The notes below the pieces were generated by a model, which had not been told where the DNA came from, ran no database searches, and saw only the letters and a list, made by a program, of their open reading frames with translations. 22,048 nt of DNA from Promethearchaeota archaeon (GTDB lineage: Archaea; Asgardarchaeota; Lokiarchaeia; Sigyniarchaeales; SOKP01): NCBI GenBank assembly GCA_016839705.1, contig JAEOTR010000080.1:1-22048 (forward strand), read 5' to 3'. The first letter of the stretch is position 1. Each line of letters begins with the position of its first letter. The translations under genes were made by a program, and so were the position numbers. Shown here one piece after another: positions 1-21,892 of this stretch.

Positions 1-491
1 GCAGGAACATCAATATTAGGTCCTATAATATCGGCAATTTCTCGAATATATTTTCTTGCAAGTGTTTCAAGTTCTCTGCTACTCATTTCCTTAGGATTAC
101 AGATAATTCCTCCTTTCGCACCACCCAATGGAATATCTACACACGCACATTTCCAAGTCATCCATGCTGACAATGCCTTTACAAGAGAAGCACTTTCTTC
201 AGGATGCCATCTAATGCCTCCTTTCATTGGACCTCTGGCAGAGTTGTATTGGCTTCTAAATCCTTTGAATGTTTTAAGCATACCATCATCCATTTTCATG
301 GTAATCTTTATTTCAACAAATCTTTCAGGTATACTTAATGTGTTATAGATCTCGTTATCATAACCATTGAGTTTACAAGCCTCATATAGTTGTTTTTGAG
401 AAATTTGAAATGGATCTAAATTCTCGCTTTCAAAACAATCGTTTTGAGGTATGATTTCATGCTCAAGGCTTAAATTTTGGTTATATTGCAT
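1..491 (-). CDS. gdhA: Glutamate dehydrogenase (Glu/Leu/Phe/Val dehydrogenase family), N-terminal ~163 codons; runs off the window edge
   Basis: Not in the ORF track. Manual translation from ATG at 491 gives MQYNQNLSLEHEIIPQNDCFESENLDPFQISQKQL...FKGFRSQYNSARGPMKGGIRWHP...LSAWMTWKCACVDIPLGGAKGGIICNPKEMS...GPNIDVPA, which contains the GDH motifs GPxKGGIR, MTWK and GGAKGG. Confidence 0.95.
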   Translation of the reverse strand, partial: MQYNQNLSLEHEIIPQNDCFESENLDPFQISQKQLYEACKLNGYDNEIYNTLSIPERFVEIKITMKMDDGMLKTFKGFRSQYNSARGPMKGGIRWHPEESASLVKALSAWMTWKCACVDIPLGGAKGGIICNPKEMSSRELETLARKYIREIADIIGPNIDVP

Positions 492-972: not shown

Positions 973-1440
973 TTATTCTTCTTTCATTTCAACCTTAAAA
1001 TTTATTTTATGAGTCATTTTATAAATATCAATAAAACTTGATACGTCCATCCGTGGTTTGATTCCATCAATCGTCTTAATCTTTTCATTAATAAACCTCC
1101 ATAGAGATTTTTCATTTTCTGCAAAAAATCGTGCTACAATATCATGATCTCCTGTTGTTGTAGCAATAAGTTGTACTTCGTCTAATGATGCAATTTTTTC
1201 AGCAACTTCATCCATTTTTAACGGATCTACAGAAAGACCTAAGATCGCAATAGTCCCGAAACCTGCTTTCATTGGATTTACAATAGTATCTTCTTTCTTT
1301 ATTATACCCTCTTCAAGTAATTTTTGAACTCTATTATGAACACTACTAGCTGCCATTTTGACTTTTTTGCCTAAAACTTTATACGAAATTCGAAAGTTAT
1401 TCTGTAAAATATTTAAAATTTCTTTATCAATATCATCCAT
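973..1440 (-). CDS. Lrp/AsnC family transcriptional regulator (Lrp-1)
   Basis: N-terminal HTH (DDIDKEILNILQ...AASSVHNRVQKLLEEGII) and RAM domain (TTGDHDIV). Start moved to ATG 1440, 7 nt after the SD-like GATGT(GA). Confidence 0.93.
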   Translation of the reverse strand: MDDIDKEILNILQNNFRISYKVLGKKVKMAASSVHNRVQKLLEEGIIKKEDTIVNPMKAGFGTIAILGLSVDPLKMDEVAEKIASLDEVQLIATTTGDHDIVARFFAENEKSLWRFINEKIKTIDGIKPRMDVSSFIDIYKMTHKINFKVEMKEE

Positions 1441-1607
1441 GTAAATCACATCGAATAATAAACTTTTTTTATGTATTATTTGGGATTATATTCTTTTAAA
1501 AGTTCTTTTTTTAAATTTCATCCAATTTAAAACCAAGTAGTTATTTAAGAGATTTTTTTTACACTACTCTAAATTATTTTCTTAAATATTTAATATGAAA
1601 TATGAAG

Positions 1608-4142: not shown

Positions 4143-5555
4143 TTATTTTAATTTTAGATATTGGTTCATCGCTTTAGCTGCTTTTCTCCCGGCACCCATA
4201 GCAGATATTACAGTAGCCGCGCCGGTAACAATATCTCCTCCCGCATAAATTCCTTCGACGTTAGTTTTTCCAATCTCATCAGTCACAATATAGCCCCATT
4301 TATTTAATTCAAGTGCAGGATAAGTTGAGGTTAATAAAGGGTTAGAATTGTTTCCTATACCGATAATTACTAAATCAGTTTTAATAATAAATTCAGAGTT
4401 TTCAATTGGGATTGGTCGTGCTCTCCCCGACTCATCGGGCTCCCCTAGTTTCATTTGTATTACCTCCATCTCTTTAACTTTTCCCTCTTCATCACCAATA
4501 AATCTAATAGGATTAGTTAATAATTTAAAAATGATACCTTCTTCCTCTCCGTGATGGACTTCTTCTAGTCTTGCGGGAAGTTGTTCCATAGCTCGACGAT
4601 AGACAATGGTGACTGTATTTGCTCCAAGTCTTAATGCTGTTCTCGCTGAATCCATCGCAGTGTTACCCCCTCCAATAACAACAATATTTTTCCCTTTCAC
4701 TATAGGTGTCTTAAATCTTGGAAAATCATATGCTTTCATAAGGTTGGTTCTTGTTAAATATTCATTAGCAGAGACAATCCCTCTTAAATTTTCACCAGGG
4801 AGACCTAAGAATCGTGGACTACCTGCGCCTATCCCTATAAAAATTGCTTTAAATCCCATTGATTTCAAGTCATCTATACTTAAAACTTTACCAATAATCA
4901 TATTATACTCTATAGTTATGCCCAACATTTTAAGCGTTTCAATTTCGTCTTCTACAATCTCTTTTGGAAGCCGAAACTCGGGGATTCCATATACCAAGAC
5001 ACCTCCACCTTTATGAAAAGCTTCAAAAATGGTTACCTCATATCCAAATCTAGCCATATCAGCAGCACATGTAAGTCCAGCTGGTCCAGATCCAATGATG
5101 GCAACTTTGATATTGTTTGGTGCTTCACAGTCAGGACATTCTTTGAGTTGATTTGCTCTTTCCCAATCTGCTATAAATCTCTCAAGACTACCAATAGCCA
5201 CAGATTTAAATCGCTTTCGCATAACGCATTTTGATTCACATTGGTTTTCTTGCTGGCACACTCTCCCACAAATTGCAGGTAAAATATTATATTCCTTAAT
5301 ACTTCTAACGGCTTCTTGAATTTCTCCTTCTTTAATTAATTTTATAAACTCTGGGATATTGATATTGACAGGGCATCCTTCCACACATAAAGGTTTTGCA
5401 CATTGTAAGCATCTTTCTGCTTCTTTTTGAGCAATCTCGGCATCAAAACCTAGATTAACTTCATTAAAATTTCTAACTCTTAATTTAGGATCTTGGGTGG
5501 GCATTTTTTGCCGTGGGATTCTAACGGATTTTTTTTTAGGAGTACTATCACTCAT
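4143..5555 (-). CDS. nfnB: NfnB(L)/SudA-like NADPH-dependent flavoprotein (GltD-like; often annotated as homotetrameric glutamate synthase)
   Basis: RCLQCAKPLCVEGCP and CGRVCQQENQCESKC Fe-S motifs, GSGPAG FAD site, YGIPEFRL, GGGNTAMD and YRR NADPH site, AGGDIVTG. ATG 5555 lies 7 nt after AGGT(GA) and overlaps the upstream stop. Confidence 0.9.
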   Translation of the reverse strand: MSDSTPKKKSVRIPRQKMPTQDPKLRVRNFNEVNLGFDAEIAQKEAERCLQCAKPLCVEGCPVNINIPEFIKLIKEGEIQEAVRSIKEYNILPAICGRVCQQENQCESKCVMRKRFKSVAIGSLERFIADWERANQLKECPDCEAPNNIKVAIIGSGPAGLTCAADMARFGYEVTIFEAFHKGGGVLVYGIPEFRLPKEIVEDEIETLKMLGITIEYNMIIGKVLSIDDLKSMGFKAIFIGIGAGSPRFLGLPGENLRGIVSANEYLTRTNLMKAYDFPRFKTPIVKGKNIVVIGGGNTAMDSARTALRLGANTVTIVYRRAMEQLPARLEEVHHGEEEGIIFKLLTNPIRFIGDEEGKVKEMEVIQMKLGEPDESGRARPIPIENSEFIIKTDLVIIGIGNNSNPLLTSTYPALELNKWGYIVTDEIGKTNVEGIYAGGDIVTGAATVISAMGAGRKAAKAMNQYLKLK

Positions 5556-8214
5556 CAATATCACCTGTATTGAATTTTTCTATAGCTTTACATGAATGTG
5601 TCTGATAAATAGAGACTTCAGGTTCTTCAAATCTTTCATTACGAGAAAATAGTTCGTCCCATTTAATTTGGTGAGCGTCGAAAATTGGTCCATCTATACA
5701 TGCAAATTTCGTCATTTCTTTTCCATCTACAAGTAGAGTCAAACGACAACAACCACACATTCCTGTTCCATCAATCATAATAGTGTTTAAACTCACAAAA
5801 GTAGGAATATTTCCATGTTCTTTAGTGAAATTTGATGCATCTCTCATCATATAAGTGCATCCTATAAAATAAGCTCTGTCATAATTTATTTTGTGGTTTT
5901 TTAAATGCTCTAATCCTGCTAAAATTTTACCTTTCAAACCCTTAGATCCATCTGAAGAACAATATATTATATTATCTGAGATCTCTTCAAATTCCTTTTC
6001 TAAATAGAATAAATTCTCATTTCTTGCTTCTAAAATGATTATTATCTTATTCCCCGCTGATTTTAATGCTTTAGCGATTGGAAAAATGGCACCATTTCCA
6101 TAACAACCACCTGCTAACAAAACTGTACCAAAATTTTCAATCTCGATATCTTGTCCTAAAGGCCCTACAACACTATAAAGATAATCATTCGGATTAAGAT
6201 CTATTAATTCCATTGTTGAATATCCTGCCTCTTGAAAGTAGAGTGTTATAGTACCTTTTACAGGATCCCAATCAGATATAGTTAATGGTATTCTTTCACC
6301 TATCTCCTCTTTCATTAGAATAACAAAATTGCCCGGTTTTGCTTTTTTAGCCATCAAAGGTGCTTGAATTATTAATTGGTAGAAGTTTATAGCAATTTCT
6401 TTATTAGAAATAACTTTAAATCTCGTTTTCTTTAATTCTTTTACATGTAATTCAGTACTTTCCCCAGAAAATTTAAATTTACGATATTCAATTAAATTAT
6501 TTAGATCTTCTACATGATTCGAGATTGGTTCTCCACGGTACTTAAATGATTCTAATGATACATGTTGGGGTATTAATTGACAAGATTTTTCCTCAAATGT
6601 GTTTGAAGGTAGATTGAATCCTTTCATTAGATTTTCAGAATCTTGTGAGTTAAATTCAGTTTGTTTCTTTATAATTTCTTCATTAATTTCAGAAGTATTT
6701 GAAAAACGAAATTCGCTTTTAATTGAATCATCAAATATTATAGATAACTCACAAAAGATCTCCCAATCTGGTTTTGATACCCCTAGTTTTAAGGCTGCTT
6801 GGGAGAAATAACTTGGTATATGTTCAGAATTAATGAAAGTTCCTGAATCTTCTATAAATGTGCATGTTGGAAGAACTACATTAGCAAACTGAAAGTTCTT
6901 TGAAGGATATATATCTTGCAGTATTAAATATTCAATATTTTTGAGGATTTCCTGATTTTCAAGTCTTTCCGTAAGATATAAAGCTTTTATCCTTCCATTT
7001 TTAATATCATTGATAATATCCTCTTGAGATTTCTTGCTGTTTATTATGATATTTTTCAAAACACCCTTAATATTTGCATTTCTCCAAAGATATTGATCAT
7101 CATATTTGTTATTTAGAAGTGCCGTTAGAACAATATTATCAGTTTTTAGAATTTTTTTAGCAAATTTATGCAAAATATAAGCGGATTCATTTGATAAATC
7201 GACCGAAGTTAATATTGCAATTTCATCAGGTTTGAATTTCATTAGATTTTCTTTTATGGCGTTGTATGCCTCATACCACCCACTTGGGATTAAATTCTTA
7301 TTGTTTTTGACTAAAGGATATTTCAATCTCTTATTTCCATTGTTAAAAGGTACTATACAAAACCGACCAAATACACATGGAAACTTATTATTTGAATAAT
7401 TATTTTTGTTTGGAATTGACTCTACTAGTAATTCATTAAAAGAAAAGTAGTCAAAACTACAATGTATACCACAAAAACCACAAACAGACATTGTTTTGTT
7501 ACTGTTTTTATCAAACCATTTAGTATTTTTTGATGTGATGGCACCTGTGGGACATATATCAATACAAGCGCCACAAAACTGACAATTTGAATCGATGAGA
7601 GAGATATCAAAAGCTGTTGAGACTTTTGTATCATGACCTCGATTCGCAAAATTAATAGCCCCATTCTTTCTTAATTCATTACAAATCCTAACACATTTAC
7701 CACATAAGATACACATATTAGGATCTATTTCTATAAATGGATCATTTCTCTTTAGAGATGAATTCTTGTACTCTAATTGATATTCGACATCATCTATTTC
7801 AAGATAATTAGTAATTTTTCTTAAATCACAGGTTTCCTTACTGGAACAGAAAAAGCATCCAAAAGATCTACCTGCTTTACTTTCACTTCTCCCATCCTCT
7901 TCACATTTATCTTTGTTACCACATACAAGACAAGAGTAGGGATGGTCACTCAATATTAATTTCAAAATCTCTATTCTTAATTCTCGAAGTTCATCGTCAT
8001 TTGTGATAATTTTCATATCATTTTGGGCAGGAGTTGAACAAGCTGTAGGATATCCTTTCATACCTTCAACTTTAACAATACAAAGTCTACATCCTCCATA
8101 AGAAGTTAAATTTTCTATATAACAGAGTGTAGGAATGAATATAACCGCTTTTTTTGCGACTTCTAAAATCGTCTGTCCCTCTAAAAATTCGATGACTGTT
8201 TCGTTGATTTTCAA
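5548..8214 (-). CDS. Fusion: NuoG/HydA/FdhA-like Fe-S domain + truncated molybdopterin-oxidoreductase scaffold + C-terminal NfnA(S)/SudB domain
   Basis: [2Fe-2S] IPTLC...GGCRLC...TAC; HxxxCxxCx5C; CILCGKCVRIC; CQFCGACIDIC; CGFCGIHC...C. Remnants RLKYPL and VVLPTCTFIEDSGTFIN. From aa ~598: AKPGNFVIL...ERIPLTISD...VVGPLG...MIDGTGMCGCCR...CIDGPIFD (NfnA/SudB). Confidence 0.88.
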   Translation of the reverse strand: MKINETVIEFLEGQTILEVAKKAVIFIPTLCYIENLTSYGGCRLCIVKVEGMKGYPTACSTPAQNDMKIITNDDELRELRIEILKLILSDHPYSCLVCGNKDKCEEDGRSESKAGRSFGCFFCSSKETCDLRKITNYLEIDDVEYQLEYKNSSLKRNDPFIEIDPNMCILCGKCVRICNELRKNGAINFANRGHDTKVSTAFDISLIDSNCQFCGACIDICPTGAITSKNTKWFDKNSNKTMSVCGFCGIHCSFDYFSFNELLVESIPNKNNYSNNKFPCVFGRFCIVPFNNGNKRLKYPLVKNNKNLIPSGWYEAYNAIKENLMKFKPDEIAILTSVDLSNESAYILHKFAKKILKTDNIVLTALLNNKYDDQYLWRNANIKGVLKNIIINSKKSQEDIINDIKNGRIKALYLTERLENQEILKNIEYLILQDIYPSKNFQFANVVLPTCTFIEDSGTFINSEHIPSYFSQAALKLGVSKPDWEIFCELSIIFDDSIKSEFRFSNTSEINEEIIKKQTEFNSQDSENLMKGFNLPSNTFEEKSCQLIPQHVSLESFKYRGEPISNHVEDLNNLIEYRKFKFSGESTELHVKELKKTRFKVISNKEIAINFYQLIIQAPLMAKKAKPGNFVILMKEEIGERIPLTISDWDPVKGTITLYFQEAGYSTMELIDLNPNDYLYSVVGPLGQDIEIENFGTVLLAGGCYGNGAIFPIAKALKSAGNKIIIILEARNENLFYLEKEFEEISDNIIYCSSDGSKGLKGKILAGLEHLKNHKINYDRAYFIGCTYMMRDASNFTKEHGNIPTFVSLNTIMIDGTGMCGCCRLTLLVDGKEMTKFACIDGPIFDAHQIKWDELFSRNERFEEPEVSIYQTHSCKAIEKFNTGDIDE

Positions 8215-8238
8215 AGTTTTTTTTTTATTGGTAATCGT

Positions 8239-10059
8239 TTAATCACTTCTTAGTGTTTTTTTTGGTACTTTAGAGATTGAATTATATGGGCATAAATTAA
8301 AGCATAACTCACACTTGATACATAAATCGGGATTAATGAAATGTGGTTCCTTAGAATTGCCCGTAATAGCTTTGGAAGGACAATTATTTTTGCAAACTTC
8401 ACATCCAGTACAATTGTTTTCATCTATTGAAAATGATATCAAATTCTTACAAACAAGAGCGGGACAACTCTTTTCTACTACATGTGCTTCATATTCATCT
8501 CTAAAATACTTTAGAGTTGTAAGAACGGGATTGGGTGCTGTTTGACCTAATCCACATAAACTAGTTTTCTTAATAATGTTTGCTAATTTTTCTAAACGTT
8601 CTAAATCTTTTAAATTTGCTTTTCCTTCTGTAATATCAGTAAGAATATCTAACATCCTCTTAGTTCCTACTCTACATGGGACACATTTTCCACAAGATTC
8701 GTTTTGAGTGAAAGAAATAAAATAATGGGCTAATTCTACCATACAAGTGTCCTCATCTAATACAATAAAACCTCCAGAACCCATTATAGAACCTAATGAG
8801 GTAATACTCACATAATCCATTTTAGTATCTGAAAACCTTGCAGGAATGCATCCTCCTGATGGTCCACCAATTTGAACTGCTTTAAATTTCTTTCCGTTTG
8901 GAATACCACCACCGATATCATGCACGATTTTTCCAATCGATGTACCCATAGGAATTTCTACTAATCCTGAATTATTTATTTTTCCTGTGAGAGCTACAAC
9001 CAAGGTTCCAGAGGCAGATTGAGTTCCTATTGAAGAAAACCATTCAGAACCCTTCTCAATTATTTTAGGGATAAAACTATAGGTCTTAACATTATTGTTA
9101 TTAGTCGGTTTATCCCATAAACCAGATGTTGAAGGATAGGGAGGACGAGGTCTAGGAATTCCTCGCTTCCCCATAATAGAAGCCATTAATGCTGTTTCTT
9201 CTCCACATACAAACGCACCAGCTCCTTTTTTTAATGTTATATTAAAATTAAATCCTGAATTAAGAATATCCTTACCAAGATATCCCGCATCTCTAGCTTG
9301 TTGAATAGCTAAATCAAACCTTTCAACAGCTAAAGGATATTCTGCTCTGATGTATATATAACCATAGTTTGCACTAATTGCATAAGCAGCAATGAGCATT
9401 CCTTCAATAACACTATGTGGATCACTTTCCAAAATAGTCCTATCCATAAACGCTCCTGGATCTCCTTCATCTCCATTACATATTAAATATTTAGGAGTTC
9501 CCTCAGCTTCTTGACATAAAGCCCATTTTTGTCCCGTGAGAAATCCTGCGCCGCCTCTACCTCGTAATCCTGATTTTCGAATCTCGTTAATAACATCTAA
9601 GGGGCTATAATGTTGTAATACTTTTTTAAGTGATTCATACCCACCCTCAAATATATATTCTTTAATATCTTCTGGGTTTATTTTGCCACAATTATCAGTA
9701 ATAATGGGCTTTTGCTCAGAATAAAACTGGATATCATCAATATTTCTTATAAAGTTTCCCGTTTTGGGATCCCTATAAAGTAGTCTTTCAACAATTTTAT
9801 CCTCTAATAAATGTTGCTTGATAATATCTATAACATCACTTTCCTTAAGATTAACATATAAAACATTATCGGGGTCAATGATAAAAGTGGGTCCAACTTG
9901 ACAAAAGCCGTGACAGCCAGTTTTTTTAACGTATATAAATTCTGCTAAGTCCCACTCTTGAATTAATTTCACTAATTCTTCGTGAACAGGATTTGCTTTT
10001 AATGAATTACATCCTGTACCTCTACAAACGCGAATAGTCCTTGTTCGAATTTTATTCAT
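8239..10059 (-). CDS. nuoF: NuoF/HydB(BfuB)-like FMN/NADH-binding subunit, bifurcating-type architecture
   Basis: N-terminal thioredoxin-like [2Fe-2S] (CRGTGC...CHGFC), SGLRGRGGAGF, DEGDPGAFMD, GAFVCGEE, GGPSGG, CGKCVPC...C, EAHVVEKSCPALVC, C-terminal 2x[4Fe-4S]. Confidence 0.93.
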   Translation of the reverse strand: MNKIRTRTIRVCRGTGCNSLKANPVHEELVKLIQEWDLAEFIYVKKTGCHGFCQVGPTFIIDPDNVLYVNLKESDVIDIIKQHLLEDKIVERLLYRDPKTGNFIRNIDDIQFYSEQKPIITDNCGKINPEDIKEYIFEGGYESLKKVLQHYSPLDVINEIRKSGLRGRGGAGFLTGQKWALCQEAEGTPKYLICNGDEGDPGAFMDRTILESDPHSVIEGMLIAAYAISANYGYIYIRAEYPLAVERFDLAIQQARDAGYLGKDILNSGFNFNITLKKGAGAFVCGEETALMASIMGKRGIPRPRPPYPSTSGLWDKPTNNNNVKTYSFIPKIIEKGSEWFSSIGTQSASGTLVVALTGKINNSGLVEIPMGTSIGKIVHDIGGGIPNGKKFKAVQIGGPSGGCIPARFSDTKMDYVSITSLGSIMGSGGFIVLDEDTCMVELAHYFISFTQNESCGKCVPCRVGTKRMLDILTDITEGKANLKDLERLEKLANIIKKTSLCGLGQTAPNPVLTTLKYFRDEYEAHVVEKSCPALVCKNLISFSIDENNCTGCEVCKNNCPSKAITGNSKEPHFINPDLCIKCELCFNLCPYNSISKVPKKTLRSD

Positions 10060-10571
10060 TATTTGAAAATTTGGTTAGTTTTATCTTCTTTTAAATCTTT
10101 AAGAATTCTTTTCAACTTCTTAATTGTTAAATCCCCATAAATTTGCCCATTAATCACGCATACCGGTGATATTGCACAACATCCTAAGCATGCTACTGAT
10201 TCTATACTAAAAAGCAGATCATCTGTTGTTTTACCAGCTCTTATCCCTAATTCGTTTTCAACAAAATATAATAAATGTGGGCCTCCCTTAACATGACAAG
10301 CAGTACCATCACAACATATAAGAATATTTTTTCCCAATTTTTTAAATTTAAACTGCGTATAGAAAGTAGCTATGCTATAAATTTCAGCAAGAGAAATTTT
10401 TAACTTTCTAGATAGGTAATACAAAACATTTGAGGGTAAATATTGATATGTTTCTTGTATTTTTTGCAATATTGAAATTAAATTTCCTTTTTCGCGTTCG
10501 TAAGTTTTCAAGATTTTATTAATCTTGGTTTTCTGCTTATCATTGATTTCATAGAGGAGTTCTTGAGTCAA
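10059..10571 (-). CDS. nuoE: NuoE/HydC(BfuC)-like [2Fe-2S] subunit
   Basis: LISILQKIQETYQYLP, IATFYTQF, CDGTACHVKG, ACLGCCAISP; its stop overlaps the nuoF-like ATG (TAATG). Confidence 0.92.
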   Translation of the reverse strand: MTQELLYEINDKQKTKINKILKTYEREKGNLISILQKIQETYQYLPSNVLYYLSRKLKISLAEIYSIATFYTQFKFKKLGKNILICCDGTACHVKGGPHLLYFVENELGIRAGKTTDDLLFSIESVACLGCCAISPVCVINGQIYGDLTIKKLKRILKDLKEDKTNQIFK

Positions 10572-14859: not shown

Positions 14860-16506
14860 TTAATAGTTTCCTGAATAAATCTCGTTTTTGACTAACTCAA
14901 AATCTAGTGATTCTTGGGATTTTATTCCAAGATCCCATTTATAGCACACTTCTTTAGCTCTTTGAGTGATATATGCAATATCTTCGCGACTCAGTAAGTT
15001 TAATTTAAATTTCCGAACCCCTGCTAATAATTGCTTTATTCCAATACCTAATTTACTCGCAAAATAAGTATAAACCCCTACGGCTGAAGGTGGGATATAT
15101 TTTCCATTATAAACTCTATGCAAATTATCGTATTCAACAAACGCCTCATTTATAGTTAAACTCCTAGGATCTTTCTCTTTTGGAAATCCTAAGTTCTTTA
15201 ACATTGCTGGTGTTTGTTGTTTCTTATCAATGACGTCACCAATATATTTTGCTTTCATTGCAGCGGTAATTGGTGCTCTTGCCATTGCTATACAGTTTAT
15301 GTAGGGTGCCCCCATCGCAAGTGCTTTAAACATCTGGGTTTCATTTGCAATACCACCTGCGATTGCTATCGATGGTATAGTTGTGTTTGGGTTTTTACTC
15401 TTAATCATGTCAAGGCAGCCAACCACAAGTGCTTCTAAATATGCAGTCGGAATTGAACCCTCATTCATCATGCTTACAGGACTCATACCCGTCCCTCCAC
15501 CGGCCCCATCAAATGTCATCCCATCCACTTTTCCTTCAATTCCCATTCTTATAATCCATGCTGTTGCCGCTGGTCTATATGCTCCAGTTTTTATGAATAT
15601 ATTCTTTGCACCGTTGGAACGTATTTGGTCAATTTCTTCTAAAACATCCTCTGTAGAAGAGAGTCCTACTCTACTATGCCTTTCAAAGTCTGGAATCAAT
15701 CCTGCTTTCCATTCTTCTATAATAAAAGGATCAGAGGGATCTGGGAAAACTAAATATCCCCTTTCTTGCAGTAACTGTGCTCGTTCTAAAGATTCTAACC
15801 GAACTTCACCTCCAATTGCCTTTGCTCCTTGACCAAATTTTATTTCAAGAGAATTTACTTCTAGGTTAGAAGTGACATAGTCAAATACACCTAATCTTGT
15901 ATCCTCAACATTTTTTTGAACAATGATATCTCCGTGTTTACCATCCCAGAATTTCCTAAAAGTTTCTACACGGTTTTTCATATCCACAGTATCAATCACT
16001 TGAGGATATACAGAATGGTTAGCAAATTTAGAACCGGGATCCATACCAACAACATTCTCACCTACTGTGATACTTACTCCTGCCAAAGCTGCACCTATTG
16101 CTAAACCATCCCAATTGCGTTTCGCAACATAGGTACTTCCTAATCCTGCTATCACAAAAGGGAGTTTTTGATCTATATTTCCCCATTTAGTAGAGATGTC
16201 AACATTAGGAAAAATTACCTTATCTTCGTGAGCTTCAATCCCTTGAGCTCCTCGACATTCAAATTGAATTTGAAAATCACTATATGAAAAACCAAAATCT
16301 TTTGGTGAACCTGCAGTAGAATTACCAAAAAACTCTCTTCGAGGATACAGTACTTCACGACCTCTAAGTGCTGATTTTGAAACTTCACAAAAAACAGGGC
16401 AATCGGCAACACAAATCGGGCATAATCCAGATTCACAAGAATCCTCAACCCTTGTCTTGGATCCAATCATACTCATTTGATGGGTATCCATTGAAAATTT
16501 TGTCAT
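14860..16506 (-). CDS. gltB: Stand-alone FMN-binding glutamate synthase subunit (GltB domain-2 family, N-terminal Cys-rich type)
   Basis: CPICVADCPVFCEV, EIKFGQGAKAIGGE, DGAGGGTGMSP, IAGGI...KALAMGAP; no glutamine amidotransferase domain. Confidence 0.88.
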   Translation of the reverse strand: MTKFSMDTHQMSMIGSKTRVEDSCESGLCPICVADCPVFCEVSKSALRGREVLYPRREFFGNSTAGSPKDFGFSYSDFQIQFECRGAQGIEAHEDKVIFPNVDISTKWGNIDQKLPFVIAGLGSTYVAKRNWDGLAIGAALAGVSITVGENVVGMDPGSKFANHSVYPQVIDTVDMKNRVETFRKFWDGKHGDIIVQKNVEDTRLGVFDYVTSNLEVNSLEIKFGQGAKAIGGEVRLESLERAQLLQERGYLVFPDPSDPFIIEEWKAGLIPDFERHSRVGLSSTEDVLEEIDQIRSNGAKNIFIKTGAYRPAATAWIIRMGIEGKVDGMTFDGAGGGTGMSPVSMMNEGSIPTAYLEALVVGCLDMIKSKNPNTTIPSIAIAGGIANETQMFKALAMGAPYINCIAMARAPITAAMKAKYIGDVIDKKQQTPAMLKNLGFPKEKDPRSLTINEAFVEYDNLHRVYNGKYIPPSAVGVYTYFASKLGIGIKQLLAGVRKFKLNLLSREDIAYITQRAKEVCYKWDLGIKSQESLDFELVKNEIYSGNY

Positions 16507-16539: not shown

Positions 16540-16848
16540 TTATTCAAATCTCAAAAAATGATTTATTTTTTCTTCATTAATTCCTGTCTTACTAAACCTA
16601 ATTGTAGTGTATATATTCCAATCGTACTCATGGTTCTCGAGTTTATCTTTATGGGTGAGTTCTTCAGCAATAGAGTCACAATTACATCCAAAGGGTAAAC
16701 TCTTTAATTCTAAAAAGTTGTCACATCGCCACTTCTCGGTACCTACCCCATTATGGGATAATAAACTACTGTTTGCGGTTTCTTCACATGTCTTACATAC
16801 CTTCCTGTCATGATAATATTCTTTTCCACATAAATGACATTTTAACAT
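16540..16848 (-). CDS. Zn-ribbon hypothetical protein A, paralogue of 18434..18805
   Basis: CHLCGKEYYHDRKVCKTCE; ends 33 bp before the gltB start on the same strand; clear similarity to 18434..18805. Confidence 0.85.
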   Translation of the reverse strand: MLKCHLCGKEYYHDRKVCKTCEETANSSLLSHNGVGTEKWRCDNFLELKSLPFGCNCDSIAEELTHKDKLENHEYDWNIYTTIRFSKTGINEEKINHFLRFE

Positions 16849-16880
16849 TTTTACTATTCACATCCCTTTATTTTTCTCAT

Positions 16881-17096
16881 TTATTGCGCCTCATATAATC
16901 TCGGCCGTTGACTATAAAATATTCTCAACCGGTCTGGCATTGTTTTTCTTATCCGTTTAATCACTGTTGTTACTCCATTACGATTATCTCCATATCCCAT
17001 TGCTCTAGCCCATTCTGCAGCTGAGGATCGTCCTATTTCTCTTAGCTTTTCTAAGCATATTTCTTCCCATGTTCGATAATACTCTTGAACTGTTAT
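16881..17096 (-). CDS. Uncalled 71-aa winged-helix-like protein, probable non-canonical ATA start
   Basis: Manual translation: (M)TVQEYYRTWEEICLEKLREIGRSSAAEWARAMGYGDNRNGVTTVIKRIRKTMPDRLRIFYSQRPRLYEAQ*. Perfect AGGAGGT SD 7 nt upstream; visibly more GC-rich than the flanking intergenic DNA. Confidence 0.7.
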   Translation of the reverse strand: MTVQEYYRTWEEICLEKLREIGRSSAAEWARAMGYGDNRNGVTTVIKRIRKTMPDRLRIFYSQRPRLYEAQ

Positions 17097-17163
17097 TTTT
17101 AAAACCTCCTTTCTGAAAATTTATTATTTTATTTTTCTATTTGTTAACTCCATTTTTTAATAG

Positions 17164-17183
17164 TATGGGAATTTTTTCCCATA
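17164..17183. promoter_or_regulatory. Palindrome TATGGGAA-TTTT-TTCCCATA (operator or 5'-UTR hairpin) of the wHTH-ZnA-gltB operon
   Basis: Perfect 8-bp arms, about 25-45 bp downstream of the candidate TATA at 17214..17207. Confidence 0.55.
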
Positions 17184-17206
17184 TTTATATAATAATACAC
17201 GTTGCT

Positions 17207-17220
17207 CTTTATAAAGTTAT
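17207..17220 (-). promoter_or_regulatory. Candidate BRE/TATA (ATAAC-TTTATAAA) for the wHTH-ZnA-gltB operon
   Basis: Consensus TTTATAAA on the minus strand, between the phased site array and the palindrome. Confidence 0.45.
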
Positions 17221-17595
17221 TGATCGTTTTTTAGTAAAATCGTCAAAATACTAAACATAAATATTAAAAACAATGGAAAAAGTGAACGATTCTAAAGATC
17301 TGGGTTAAATTTGTGAAAATCTTTTTTCTTTTGCATATCTATTATTTAAAATTAATGGTTTTAAGTGAACAAATTTTAAAAAAAAAATTGTTTTTGACAG
17401 AATTATATGTTATTCTTTAATAGAAGTGAAAATTATCTTAACTTATTTATATTCTATTGAAATAGTTTCAGGATTCTGCAAAGTAATTGTGTTAAGATCT
17501 GAACAAAACTGATTATGTACATAAATAATGTGAAATCTTTTTTGTAGGTAGAAATCTTAAATAAAAACTTATTATTAATCATTGAACAGAATTAA
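17221..17595. promoter_or_regulatory. Helically phased array of TGAA(C/A)-type 13-bp sites (putative Lrp/FFRP operators)
   Basis: Sites start at 17221, 17252, 17283, 17314, 17366, 17427, 17458 (perfect TGAAA-TAG-TTTCA), 17500, 17531 and 17583; spacings 31,31,31,52,61,31,42,31,52. Confidence 0.6.
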
Positions 17596-17613
17596 TTTTT
17601 TAAGACTCTTCAT

Positions 17614-18093
17614 CTATTCTTCAGTTATTAATTCTGCTAATGAGCTATTTTCTTTAATTATATTCAAAACTATATGAGTATTAGTGCGCTCAACAAAAGG
17701 TGATGCGTGAATGTTTTCTTTTATCATTTCACTAAGTTCTGATCTCGTTTTAAACCTAGCTAAAATAAGGGCGTCATAAGTTCCTGTAATATCATATACT
17801 GCAAATACATTAGGAATCTGTGCTATTTTTTTCTCTACTTCCAGCATTTTTCCTTTTGAAACTGTAATTTCAATAAGGGCAATGATATCATATCCTAATT
17901 TTTCGTAATCAATTTGAGCACCGTAATTCTTTATTATACCATTCTTTTCCAAATTCTCAACATGATTCTTGATTGTAACTGGAGATCCTACATCCAGATC
18001 TTTTGCAAGTTGACGAAGTGAGATTCTACCATCTTTGCTAAGATTAGTAAGGATTTTAATATCTAAATCAGAAAAATTCATCTTTGAGTTCAT
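17614..18093 (-). CDS. Lrp/AsnC family transcriptional regulator (Lrp-2)
   Basis: DLDIKILTNLSKDGRISLRQLAKDL...LEKNGIIKNY, VYDITGTYD, ERTNTHIVL. Start uncertain (18132, 18093 or 18081); 18093 chosen because TTTAATAA begins 31 nt upstream (leaderless geometry). Confidence 0.92.
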   Translation of the reverse strand: MNSKMNFSDLDIKILTNLSKDGRISLRQLAKDLDVGSPVTIKNHVENLEKNGIIKNYGAQIDYEKLGYDIIALIEITVSKGKMLEVEKKIAQIPNVFAVYDITGTYDALILARFKTRSELSEMIKENIHASPFVERTNTHIVLNIIKENSSLAELITEE

Positions 18094-18280
18094 AGTATTA
18101 GATAGCTTTAATTTCGTTATTAAATTATGCATTTGTTCATATCATACATAGAAAAATAACTAAATGATCATTATTTTTACCGACAAAAATTATTAACTTA
18201 ATCGATCATTCACTTTATTTAAGAATTATTGATCATTTATAAATCTTTTTTTCCATAAATGTTAACATTCGAGCTAGTCA

Positions 18281-18299
18281 ACAACAAGATTTTTAAATA
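18281..18299 (+). promoter_or_regulatory. Candidate BRE/TATA (ACAACAAGA-TT-TTTAAATA) for ZnB-glnA
   Basis: TTTAAATA preceded by a purine-rich stretch, about 135 bp upstream of ATG 18434. Confidence 0.35.
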
Positions 18300-18433
18300 T
18301 ACGATCACATTTAATATTTAAGAAAAAAAAATAGGTAAATAATCCATAAAAATATATTCATTGGAAAGAATATGGAAATTTCCTATTAATTAGAATGATA
18401 CAATAAAAATTACCAAAGTGTGAAAAAGAAAAG

Positions 18434-18805
18434 ATGGAGATAAAGTGCCCCATATGTGGAAAAAAATACCACTATGATAGAAAAATATGTCAAGATTGTG
18501 AAGACTATTCAATTTATAGTGGTGTGGCAAAGATTGGAGATAAAAACAATCATAAATGGAATTGCTCCGTGTTCTTAGGAATTGAGACTCTAGCATTTAG
18601 AGCAAGTAAATTCTGTGACTCGATTAAGAACTTGACTCCGGAACCAAACAATTTTATAATTAATGAAAGAAAATTATATGATTGGAATTCTGAAACCGCT
18701 AGTAGATTTAAGAGAAAAAAGGAGGGTTTCCCGATAAATATACCCCCCAGTAATTTTTCCACAATTAAGAAATACGGAAGTGATACTTCTCTCGTTTATG
18801 AATAG
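18434..18805 (+). CDS. Zn-ribbon hypothetical protein B, paralogue of 16540..16848
   Basis: CPICGKKYHYDRKICQDCE; ends 34 bp before the glnA ATG on the same strand. Confidence 0.85.
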   Translation: MEIKCPICGKKYHYDRKICQDCEDYSIYSGVAKIGDKNNHKWNCSVFLGIETLAFRASKFCDSIKNLTPEPNNFIINERKLYDWNSETASRFKRKKEGFPINIPPSNFSTIKKYGSDTSLVYE

Positions 18806-18839: not shown

Positions 18840-20189
18840 ATGATTGACAAAGAAGATCCAAAAAGGAAACAAATATGTGATGATGTAATAGAAACTATAA
18901 AGGAGGAAGATATAAAATATATTTATCTTCAATTTACAGATATTCACGGCATCATCAAAAGCTTTGAAATTAATTCAAAACGAATTGAAGATATTTTTGA
19001 AGTAGGTGAAAATTTTGATGGGAGTTCGATAACTGGTTATGGCGCAATAGAGGAAAGTGATAAAGTCGCTCTTCCTGACCCAAGCACATTTTATATTTTA
19101 CCATGGAGAAAAGAGAAAAAGGTAGCCAGGGTAATATGTGATATATTTAAACCTGATGGAGAGAGATATGAAGGGGATCCACGCGGTATTTTGCTAAGAG
19201 CCGTTAAAAAAGCAGAAGATCTAGGTTACAAATTTCAATGTGCCCCAGAAATGGAATTTTTCATACTGACCCCTGATACTAAACAGGAATTTAAACCTTC
19301 TGATATGAGAGGATATTTCGATTATGATCCTTATGATATTAGTGAGATGATTAGATACACAATTGCAGAATATTGCGATGCAATGGGGGTTAATGTTGAA
19401 TGTATCCATCATGAGGTTGCCTATGGTCAACATGAAATAGATTTTCGATACGATAAAGCTGTTGAAACAGCAGACAATACAATCACAATAAAAACAATAG
19501 TTAAAACTGTTGCAGCCCAAAATAACCTAATTGGCACATTTATGGCTAAACCATTTGATGGAATAAATGGGTCTGGTATGCATGTGCATCAATCTTTGTG
19601 GAAGAATGGAAATAATGTATTTTATGATAAAAATGATAAAGATAATATTTCATTAACAATGAAGAAATGGATCGCAGGACAATTAAAACACGCAAGATCT
19701 ATGTGTGCTGTTCTGAGCAGTTGGCCAAATTCCTATAAAAGACTTGTTCCAGGGTATGAAGCCCCCGTTTATTTAGCGTGGGGATTTAGGAATAGATCAC
19801 CATTAATAAGAGTTCCTGATTTTCATGGACGCCCTAATGCTGCAAGATGTGAGATAAGATGCCCAGATCCCTCTGGAAATCCTTATCTTCAATTTAGCGT
19901 GCTACTGATAGCTGGTTTAGAGGGTATTTTATCAGACGATATAGAAATTTCGGAACCAACAGATAGAAATGTTTATCATCTTTCTAGTAAAGAAATGGAA
20001 AAAGAAGGGATTATATCTCTGCCCGGAAGTCTACATGAAGCATTGATAGAATTTAAAAATTCAGAATTAATGAAAGAAGTCTTTGGAGAAACTGCATTTA
20101 AAAACTATTATTATGCCAAACTTGAAGAATTTGATGCCTATCGAGTTATTGTAAGTGAATGGGAAAGAAATCGTTATATAAGATTATAA
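18840..20189 (+). CDS. glnA: Glutamine synthetase type I (alpha-type length, ~449 aa)
   Basis: LQFTDIHG, FDGSSITG, APEMEFF, HHEVAYGQHEI, FMAKPFDGINGSGMHVHQS, SYKRLVPGYEAP, NRSPLIRVP, EIRCPDPSGNPYL. ATG 18840 is 7 nt after GGGT(GA). Confidence 0.97.
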   Translation: MIDKEDPKRKQICDDVIETIKEEDIKYIYLQFTDIHGIIKSFEINSKRIEDIFEVGENFDGSSITGYGAIEESDKVALPDPSTFYILPWRKEKKVARVICDIFKPDGERYEGDPRGILLRAVKKAEDLGYKFQCAPEMEFFILTPDTKQEFKPSDMRGYFDYDPYDISEMIRYTIAEYCDAMGVNVECIHHEVAYGQHEIDFRYDKAVETADNTITIKTIVKTVAAQNNLIGTFMAKPFDGINGSGMHVHQSLWKNGNNVFYDKNDKDNISLTMKKWIAGQLKHARSMCAVLSSWPNSYKRLVPGYEAPVYLAWGFRNRSPLIRVPDFHGRPNAARCEIRCPDPSGNPYLQFSVLLIAGLEGILSDDIEISEPTDRNVYHLSSKEMEKEGIISLPGSLHEALIEFKNSELMKEVFGETAFKNYYYAKLEEFDAYRVIVSEWERNRYIRL

Positions 20190-20242: not shown

Positions 20243-21892
20243 ATGTCAAATAGAAAGTTAAATATTGTGATAGTTCAGATTAATCCAATCGTGGGTGATA
20301 TTGAAAATAACACTAATAAAATTATGGAAATCTCAGAAAAACACCAAGAAGCGGATATTATTGTATTTCCTGAAATGTCCTTAGTAGGATATCCCTTGAT
20401 GGATCATATCTTTGATCCTCTTGTAAGAAAAAAAAACCAAGATGCGATAGATAAAATTAAGAGATTAAACTCAAAAGCTACTATTATTTTTGGAACATTC
20501 ACCGAACCTCCAGAATTAACTGAAAATTTTCAGCCATTTTTCAATTCAGCATTAATTATAAAGGGCAAAGAAATTAAATATATTGAAAATAAACGTTTAA
20601 TACCTAATTATGACGTTTTTGATGAGCATCGATATTTTTCATTTGATATAAAGTTCAAACCTATAAAAATTCATGGTGTAAACGCAGGTATTTTAATCTG
20701 TGAAGACGTATGGGATGATACTTATGATCTAAAAGTTACAAATAATCTTGTATCAAATGGTGCTGAAATTTTAATTGTAATAAATGCATCCCCTTATCAT
20801 ATTAATAAGTTAGAATTAAGACACAATATAATTAAAAAAAAATCCAAAATGTTTGAAATCCCTATTGTTTATGGCAATATGGTTGGTGGCCTTGATGAGA
20901 TAGTTTATGATGGTCAGAGTTTTATTACAAATAAATTTGGACAAATAATTTTTCAAGCTAACGCATTTGAGGAGGATATTAGGAGTGTAGAGATTGAAAT
21001 GGATAATGCTCAAGAGATCCAAGAAAATCCTTCTAAATCAGATTGGAGAGAAAATGTAGTAAAAGCACTTAAATTAAATTTATTTGATTATTATCATAAA
21101 AGTGGAATATTTAAAGGAGTAGTTTTAGGATTGAGTGGGGGTATAGATTCAGCATTCACCGCATACATTTGCGCAGAAGCCTTAGGACCAGATAAAGTAA
21201 CCTGTATAATGATGCCTACACGCTTTACTTCACAAGATAGTCTAGATTTAGCTAAAAAATTATGTGATAATACAGGAATGAATTATATCACTCACCCGAT
21301 TGATGAAATCTTTGAGATCTATCAAAAAGATTTGGAAAGAAATTTGGGAAAATTGATTTTTGATGTCGCAGATGAAAATCTACAAGCTCGAATTAGAGCA
21401 AATCTATTGATGTATTATTCAAATAAATTCAATTGGTTGTTAGTCTCCACAGGAAATAAATCCGAGATTGGAGTTGGCTTCTGTACTTTATATGGTGATA
21501 CTTGTGGTGGTAAAAACGTACCTGGAGACCTTTTAAAAGTTCAAATTTATGATATTTGTAAGTGGATAAATAAAGAAAAAGAGATAATTCCAAAAAGGAT
21601 AATAGAGAGAACTCCAGCTGCAGAATTGCGTGAAAATCAGAAGGATAGTGATTCTATACCTCCATACGAAATCCTTGATCCAATATTAGAGGAAATAATT
21701 GAACATGGAATTGGTTCTGAATTTGAAAATTTAAAAAACAAGAATTTTGAGACTAATACTATCAATAAGGTAAGAAATCTATATTTAAATTCAGAATATA
21801 AACGGAGACAATTGGTTCAAACAATAAAAGTAAGTGAAAGCGCATTTGGGATTGGGAGAAGATATCCAGTATTAAAGAAAATAAAATTCTAG
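20243..21892 (+). CDS. nadE: Glutamine-dependent NAD+ synthetase (nitrilase-like glutaminase + synthetase)
   Basis: E-K-C triad contexts FPEM, KRLIPNYDVFDE, ICEDVW; LSGGIDS, ENLQARIR, TGNKSE, TLYGD, SEYKRRQ. Confidence 0.96.
   Translation: MSNRKLNIVIVQINPIVGDIENNTNKIMEISEKHQEADIIVFPEMSLVGYPLMDHIFDPLVRKKNQDAIDKIKRLNSKATIIFGTFTEPPELTENFQPFFNSALIIKGKEIKYIENKRLIPNYDVFDEHRYFSFDIKFKPIKIHGVNAGILICEDVWDDTYDLKVTNNLVSNGAEILIVINASPYHINKLELRHNIIKKKSKMFEIPIVYGNMVGGLDEIVYDGQSFITNKFGQIIFQANAFEEDIRSVEIEMDNAQEIQENPSKSDWRENVVKALKLNLFDYYHKSGIFKGVVLGLSGGIDSAFTAYICAEALGPDKVTCIMMPTRFTSQDSLDLAKKLCDNTGMNYITHPIDEIFEIYQKDLERNLGKLIFDVADENLQARIRANLLMYYSNKFNWLLVSTGNKSEIGVGFCTLYGDTCGGKNVPGDLLKVQIYDICKWINKEKEIIPKRIIERTPAAELRENQKDSDSIPPYEILDPILEEIIEHGIGSEFENLKNKNFETNTINKVRNLYLNSEYKRRQLVQTIKVSESAFGIGRRYPVLKKIKF

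Follow-up and report, generated by a model that had tools for sequence, protein, structure and literature searches.

In Halobacterium salinarum, Brz and Brb work with Bat at the bop promoter (PMC2253796, PMC3184054). CPxCG-related small zinc fingers are recognised by a pair of Cys/His patterns, separated by 7-40 residues, of which one or both are CPxCG-like (PMC2253796). A locus resembling this system lies on a 22,048-nt stretch of DNA (the window) from a lokiarchaeial assembly (GCA_016839705.1, contig JAEOTR010000080.1): two open reading frames (ORFs) for small zinc-ribbon proteins, ORF A and ORF B, stand before a gene of the glutamate synthase (GOGAT) family, gltB, and before the glutamine synthetase (GS) gene glnA, and a third small gene, ORF C, precedes A. 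As in the Brz/Brb/Bat system, a small CPxCG-related protein is encoded directly upstream of the putatively regulated gene, a second small protein is co-encoded and the partner would be a transcription factor. Compared by description, A and B differ from Brz in spacing and in their extra W-x-C and terminal-Glu motifs; their candidate partner is a winged-helix protein and their presumed targets are nitrogen genes. Brz and Brb with Bat are the nearest precedent for a co-regulator role of A and B. The three genes are:

16540..16848, minus strand: ORF A, 102 aa; single CxxCG-x9-CxxC zinc-ribbon module, W-x-C motif, variable linker, C-terminal Phe-Glu
18434..18805, plus strand: ORF B, 123 aa; single zinc-ribbon module, linker, hydrophobic-Tyr-Glu at the C-terminus; opens the B-glnA-nadE run
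16881..17096, minus strand: ORF C, 71 aa, winged-helix-like, ATA start; first gene of the C-A-gltB run and candidate DNA-binding partner

Small proteins that control GS include the cyanobacterial IF7 and IF17, which are not zinc ribbons; nitrogen control by NrpR relies on a winged-helix binder. GS binding has been demonstrated for IF7/IF17 and for sP26 of Methanosarcina mazei (bioRxiv 10.1101/2020.05.06.080432), which has 23 aa and is not a zinc ribbon, whereas for A and B it is a candidate property. The NrpR operator of Methanococcus maripaludis is GGAA-N6-TTCC (PMC2723118). The present locus shares with it a 14-bp palindrome at glnA-type promoters, with one base per half-site different; however, no NRD 2-oxoglutarate domain was found in the window's 93%-complete genome, and any sensing would need a separate protein. 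In the GlnR/TnrA systems of Firmicutes, which act with feedback-inhibited GS (PMC9249791), a small regulator is likewise first in the glnA operon and a short conserved aromatic C-tail sits on a flexible linker. GlnR, in contrast, has its own MerR-type DNA-binding domain and no homology to A or B, whose binding to GS is putative. The Lrp adjoining glnA in Halobacterium activates that gene (PMC2894021). Lrp-2 of the window also adjoins the glnA locus and has its best NCBIfam match in that family (haloarchaeal Lrp NF041396, 119.6 bits, below the cut-off of 190), but neither a zinc-ribbon gene nor a counterpart of C is described there. No paper on how Lokiarchaeia control their nitrogen metabolism came up in a literature search. 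The evidence below gives about even chances that A and B are trans-acting zinc-ribbon co-regulators (sensors or adaptors) of a lineage-specific nitrogen/amino-acid circuit.

A zinc-ribbon family restricted to one lineage

A sequence-only reading of the window had taken A and B to be alike along their length, and both ORFs prove to be paralogues (36% identity over 92 aa, E 5e-17), the only clear family copies in the genome. The aromatic-Glu ends it had pointed out are also there, as Arg-Phe-Glu in the window's A; a Tyr/Phe-Glu end occurs in 0.8% of the 2293 proteins of the genome. B carries CPxCG and then CxxC, A carries CxxCG and then CxxC, with 10 residues between the knuckles, and both fall within the loose motif definition of CPxCG-related small zinc fingers. 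Judging from the conserved Cys5, Cys8 and Cys22, A and B would bind zinc, and the linker of B, modelled with low confidence, is probably disordered. Other supposed likenesses did not last. The motif CDSI has no weight, being present in just 4 of 68 homologues and lying in A at an internal deletion junction, and the similar upstream sequences come down to a hexamer that includes the ribosome-binding GTGA (which 11% of genes have in front of them; 1.1% have the full hexamer). The gaps to the enzyme genes are indeed nearly equal (33 nt from A to the gltB ATG at 16506, 34 nt from B to the glnA ATG at 18840), but this is coincidence: relatives have 16-99 nt in front of glnA and 1-59 nt in front of gltB.

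The unit of the family is a module of ~45 aa, consisting of CxxC, ten residues, CxxC or HxC, and then W-x-C. It is followed by a poorly modelled linker, free in length across the family (64-172 aa), and by a C-terminal hydrophobic-aromatic-Glu end, which is present in 90 of the 121 unfused copies. The last Glu of these tailed copies is fixed and the penultimate residue is Tyr (76), Phe (10), Leu (2) or Ser (2). A zinc ribbon, a flexible arm and a fixed terminal Glu are also the layout of LysW, whose C-terminal signature is EDWGE. On this likeness the family might be a LysW-like amino-group carrier or a Pup-like modifier with its terminal Glu ligated or amidated, which is scarcely credible: EDWGE is absent from the family tails, LysW appears among non-significant matches only (fold E 4.9, sequence E 0.04), the genome has no Pup ligase and its RimK-family genes are on other contigs, and the tail is dispensable in several clades. 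A hydrophobic-Tyr-Glu end, found in 73 of the 90 tailed copies including B, also recalls the HbYX tails that dock on the 20S proteasome, and AAA ATPases of the window's genome have HbYX-like ends. That A and B are nitrogen-linked proteasome adaptors is nevertheless very improbable, since HbYX requires Tyr and lets the last residue vary (PMC6696185), the reverse of a fixed last and a variable penultimate residue, and the Arg-Phe-Glu end of the window's A does not fit.

All genomes compared are metagenome assemblies and mutually related. The module profile finds 87 of the 134 genomes of the window's Lokiarchaeia family (44 of 53 and 37 of 42 in two genera); its matches in 265 other Asgard genomes come to a single weak one. 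Among 1.8 billion representatives 102 matches were obtained, the full-length ones all of the zinc-ribbon family; named homologues are hypothetical proteins, labelled Promethearchaeota nearly throughout and Thorarchaeota once. The ratio of nonsynonymous to synonymous substitution rates (dN/dS) is 0.2-0.5 across every gene context and the conserved module residues vary at synonymous positions; selection therefore acts on the protein, and A and B are coding and under purifying selection. An RNA element was rejected, given the synonymous changes all along the conserved motif and the lack of an Rfam hit.

That A and B fit no known family is borne out by the curated databases. No Pfam or NCBIfam cut-off is passed: the Pfam zinc-ribbon matches are all sub-threshold (best DZR_2, 18-20 bits against a cut-off of 27), and NCBIfam gives no match. 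The PDB sequence search returned only generic zinc fingers and ribbons, the ESM Atlas features of B led only to unnamed or generic zinc-ribbon clusters (all <0.9), and the Atlas fold search yielded short generic matches only. AlphaFold2 models are weak (mean predicted local distance difference test score 52 for B, 62 for the module), and fold searches with them gave nothing significant (Foldseek best E 1.2, VIA best Z 3.1). A search for longer fused forms of the family found none, which is weak evidence. The family is real, undescribed and restricted to one lineage; this and its strong tie to nitrogen-assimilation genes uphold the earlier proposal of a new family.

The tie is seen in the gene contexts. 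Among 146 distinct copies, 29 stand before glnA, 21 before a single-chain gltB-like gene, 14 before a CCG/GATase/GltB2 multi-subunit operon and 4 before gdh. The enrichment of downstream genes, suggested at the outset as a check, is thus found in 68 copies directly upstream of GS, glutamate-synthase-type or glutamate dehydrogenase (GDH) genes, and gdh, one of the genes named at the outset, is among them, in two genera. Fourteen copies have stayed at the GOGAT site where gltB was lost, 25 make up the N-terminal part of an Lrp fusion, and 15 unfused relatives occupy that Lrp/two-component locus; the remaining copies precede metallo-beta-lactamase, PfkB operon, MFS or RPA genes or have no assigned context. 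The nitrogen link is real and seen in two genera, but the 68 copies go back to a small number of inherited placements and do not count as separate events. On the module tree, whose supports are rough because it was built on 52 columns, the window's A module nests within the B clade (support 100/99). The window's A is a deletion form of the two-module A (161-174 aa) of close relatives, with a B-type module retained; likely, a B-type module was added before an A-type gene to give the two-module A, which later lost its original A module in the window lineage.

The Lrp fusions (L102-L120, L071, L125, L169-L173) are 194-198 aa long and lie in convergent orientation to genes for a response regulator and a histidine kinase, and Lrp paralogues of ~290 aa near them seem to hold a receiver domain. 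Lrp-1 of the window (973-1449) is related to these fusions and is itself unfused. Tailed members before a PfkB kinase/radical-SAM activase/CCG operon (L135, L140, L143, L144) or near fen1/RPA/radA (L077, L088, L099-L101) have no obvious nitrogen link.

ORF C, the palindrome and the GATCA boxes

The control region between A and B contains, in addition to ORF C:

17104..17109, minus strand: strong Shine-Dalgarno sequence GGAGGT, 7 nt before the ATA of C
17166..17181: operator-like palindrome TGGGA-N6-TCCCA, just downstream of the C TATA box; candidate C-binding site
17208..17215, minus strand: TATA-like box (TTTATAAA) of the C-A-gltB unit, putative promoter element
17614..18132, minus strand: Lrp-2, Lrp/AsnC regulator, divergent from B
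18163-18172, 18202-18210, 18229-18237 and 18301-18309: four conserved GATCA boxes between Lrp-2 and B
18290..18299, plus strand: TATA-like box of the B-glnA unit, putative promoter element, with the last GATCA box directly after it
18334..18345: degenerate palindrome remnant before B, placed where 17 of 31 relatives have the palindrome; scores as no match

The divergent layout around Lrp-2 had been described correctly for A and B, but C, between Lrp-2 and A, had been overlooked. It was found via conserved words upstream of A; standard ORF lists overlook this conserved candidate regulator because of its ATA start, in place of which other clades use ATG. The ATA start behind a perfect Shine-Dalgarno sequence is kept across a clade of species (window 17096, L043, L044, L047-L049, L053, L054, L057, L059, L065) and is possibly a tuned low-level start. 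The alignment of C follows the pattern helix, helix-turn-helix (HTH), wing; 17 of 55 members match HTH_18 weakly (E 0.004-0.1), feature matches of 0.87-0.89 lead to DUF7123 and Z-alpha clusters, and PF08461 is not matched. C stands upstream of A copies at 12/12 CCG-GOGAT, 20/20 gltB, 2/2 GATase and 13/13 gltB-lost loci, and never upstream of B or of the gdh and Lrp-fusion copies. The range of C within the family is that of the module (87 of 134 and 88 of 134 genomes). A complex prediction of C, A and zinc scored 0.00 with an uncertain partner fold and is not used as evidence either way. Genus g28 has a second stand-alone C paralogue (L185-L212), which mostly faces a conserved 280-aa gene in convergent orientation and has no zinc-ribbon gene next to it; the palindrome is still upstream of five copies.

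GGGA-N6-TCCC is found before C in 57 of 57 loci, against a background of 2.9%. In all 57 the GGG-to-CCC spacing is 8 nt and the centre is non-complementary, so that a DNA operator fits better than an RNA hairpin, and its position makes C the putative binder. The consensus from 52 distinct sites has the length of the NrpR operator with one change per half-site and does not match GGAA-N6-TTCC exactly. Palindromes of the form GGG-N6..9-CCC precede 17 of 31 B genes and none of 10 B-less glnA genes. A near-perfect copy stands before iorB in the window's genome, at the same offset in 13 of 13 orthologues. This suggests that the regulon extends to amino-acid catabolism, which would explain the survival of C and A after gltB loss. 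Intergenic operator-like sites elsewhere in genome G000 lie at C46:63674, C46:112062, C87:24312 and C3:61255 (L214-L217); behind them are iorB-iorA-acyl-CoA synthetase, an MFS gene, a small ferredoxin-like ORF and a gene for a 447-aa protein with a probable aldehyde oxidoreductase next, and the conservation count among these covers the iorB site.

The number of GATCA words in the window is not above chance; their clustering and conservation are what stands out. The boxes are retained in glnA promoters without B, which ties them to Lrp-2/glnA rather than to B and rules them out as B sites. By analogy with the haloarchaeal Lrp that activates the neighbouring glnA, they are probably Lrp-2 sites.

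Enzyme partners or transcriptional co-regulators

A separate dedicated module for each enzyme, as originally suggested, does not agree with the history of the loci. Where gltB has decayed to frameshifted remnants, A is still open, keeps its tail in 11 of 14 cases and has a dN/dS of 0.34, against 0.36 with gltB; 13 of 18 gltB-decayed genomes (completeness 84-99%) are without a strong PF01645 hit anywhere. For these reasons A is not a dedicated partner of GOGAT, and specific binding of A to GOGAT is contradicted. A-type proteins moreover alternate between two distantly related glutamate-synthase types, even inside small clades, and B is retained before a replacement GS that is 35% identical to the usual one (L052). 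Both A and B are dispensable: B is missing at 10 glnA genes, and A at no fewer than 6 GOGAT loci that do have C. PII/AmtB genes lie within the B-glnA gene cluster in five relative loci; this coexistence, with the 10 B-less glnA genes, argues that B is no PII replacement.

The gltB-remnant loci downstream of A (L058, L066, L078, L080, L085, L086, L091, L094, L096; also L056, L076, L082, L083, L097) keep an inverted repeat from the gene's own LAMG..AMAR codons, extended to a better hairpin; it may have been taken over as a terminator that separates A from pepF, which converges on it. At five loci an intact gltB lies 550-710 nt beyond the remnant.

Regulators or sensors, leader peptides and enzyme binders had all been considered for A and B; the regulator or sensor option fits best and the leader option is disfavoured. 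A cis-acting leader or ribosome-arrest peptide would pause at the terminal Glu-stop and report glutamate or Glu-tRNA supply to the next gene. Its position directly before an enzyme gene, its conserved ends around a middle open to deletion (13 distinct in-frame deletion patterns) and a terminal codon GAA in 62 of 65 cases, against ~80% background, would suit such a peptide. We consider this improbable, however, as A is retained and selected with no gene behind it, an antisense Lrp gene lies between B and glnA in two genomes, the tail is lost upstream of intact gltB, gaps range from 1 to 99 nt, several internal codons have equally few synonymous changes, and there is neither a conserved overlapping frame nor an Rfam hit. 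Re-initiation at ATG/TTG within the last codons was rejected, no frame being conserved.

The best rival supposes that the aromatic-Glu tail docks on GS as a tethered glutamate mimic, like the C-tails of GlnR/TnrA, and that the protein either modulates GS directly, as sP26 or IF7/IF17 do, or relays the state of GS to C/Lrp via the zinc module. Across the tailed copies the terminal Glu is unchanged as an amino acid, although the stop codon changes 18 times, and the free linker length would suit a tether. The tail is retained in each of the 28 copies ahead of the usual glnA, which makes binding of B to GS possible; glnA is nearby at the orphan-A loci checked, so A could act on GS in trans, and GlnR tails bind the GS active site (PMC9249791). 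In contrast, the tail is missing in one clade of A before intact gltB and in all Lrp-locus copies, glnA can do without B, B stays with the replacement GS, and B has been relocated before a metallo-beta-lactamase gene. On balance this rival appears rather unlikely; it could be combined with the co-regulator reading in an adaptor model.

In the co-regulator reading, C, a bare DNA-binding domain without an effector domain, would bind the palindrome as a dimer and, being near the start of C-A-gltB, would cause repression, and Lrp-2 would probably act through the GATCA boxes. The zinc module would tune the activity of C or Lrp upon a signal, either the glutamate/glutamine/2-oxoglutarate status or metal/redox, and the genes would precede the enzyme genes as parts of a regulated promoter cassette rather than as enzyme binders. 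This reading builds on the missing effector domain of C, on the module being the constant downstream neighbour of C at the GOGAT site, and on the fusion of the module to the HTH of an Lrp. Together with C and the palindrome, the family is a plausible variant of archaeal nitrogen transcriptional control.

Several findings weigh against it. It offers no explanation for the terminal Glu, which is near-invariant (90 of 121 unfused copies), and the contact of A and B with a partner is a candidate drawn from gene context. B never adjoins C, and its palindrome is degenerate in the window. C has no A beside it at 13 loci of the GOGAT site, and it also occurs in genomes that are well assembled yet give no module hit (G001, G063), which makes A at most accessory. 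The fold of C is assigned from sequence pattern and sub-threshold matches, the Lrp fusion has a single origin on the tree, and the relatives' genomes are not independent samples.

An Asgard split nitrogen sensor would bring the two mechanisms together: a stand-alone repressor C at an NrpR-like operator, without an effector domain, would receive its input from the zinc-ribbon adaptors, whose terminal Glu would probe GS as a tethered substrate mimic. This is decidedly unlikely, although if true it would rebuild the logic of GlnR/NrpR from three unrelated parts and join GS, glutamate synthase and amino-acid catabolism (IOR). In a genome without detected PII or NrpR, the locus offers a complete, testable candidate circuit, comprising a small DNA-binding protein, a likely operator with genomic sites, an Lrp with its boxes and a zinc-ribbon family. 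Its parts are all <175 aa, expressible and assayable in vitro. If the adaptor reading is true, it would represent a new mode of nitrogen-status sensing in the archaeal relatives of eukaryotes.

Neighbouring genes and nitrogen-control inventory

The genes that flank the control region are:

14860..16506, minus strand: gltB-like flavin mononucleotide (FMN) protein of the glutamate-synthase family, 548 aa; PF01645 only, no amidotransferase domain
18840..20189, plus strand: glnA, type I glutamine synthetase; TIGR00653 above cut-off
20243..21892, plus strand: nadE, glutamine-dependent NAD synthetase, downstream of glnA

The PII, NrpR and AmtB genes noted as absent from the window were not found in the 93%-complete genome (AmtB by tblastn), nor was the NRD domain PF01995; both methanogen controls were positive. 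Glutamate synthase activity of the 548-aa protein is assumed from its family and from the interchange with the multi-subunit operon. Its N-terminal part bears a four-cysteine motif, and no gene of its unit codes for an amidotransferase partner. At the contig end, downstream of Lrp-1, positions 3-416 (minus strand) encode the N-terminal part of a Glu/Leu/Phe/Val dehydrogenase with neither module nor palindrome upstream. Positions 4143-10571 (minus strand), divergent from guaA, hold a run of NuoE/NuoF/NuoG-like genes and a GltD/SudA-like flavoprotein gene, a possible electron donor to glutamate synthase.

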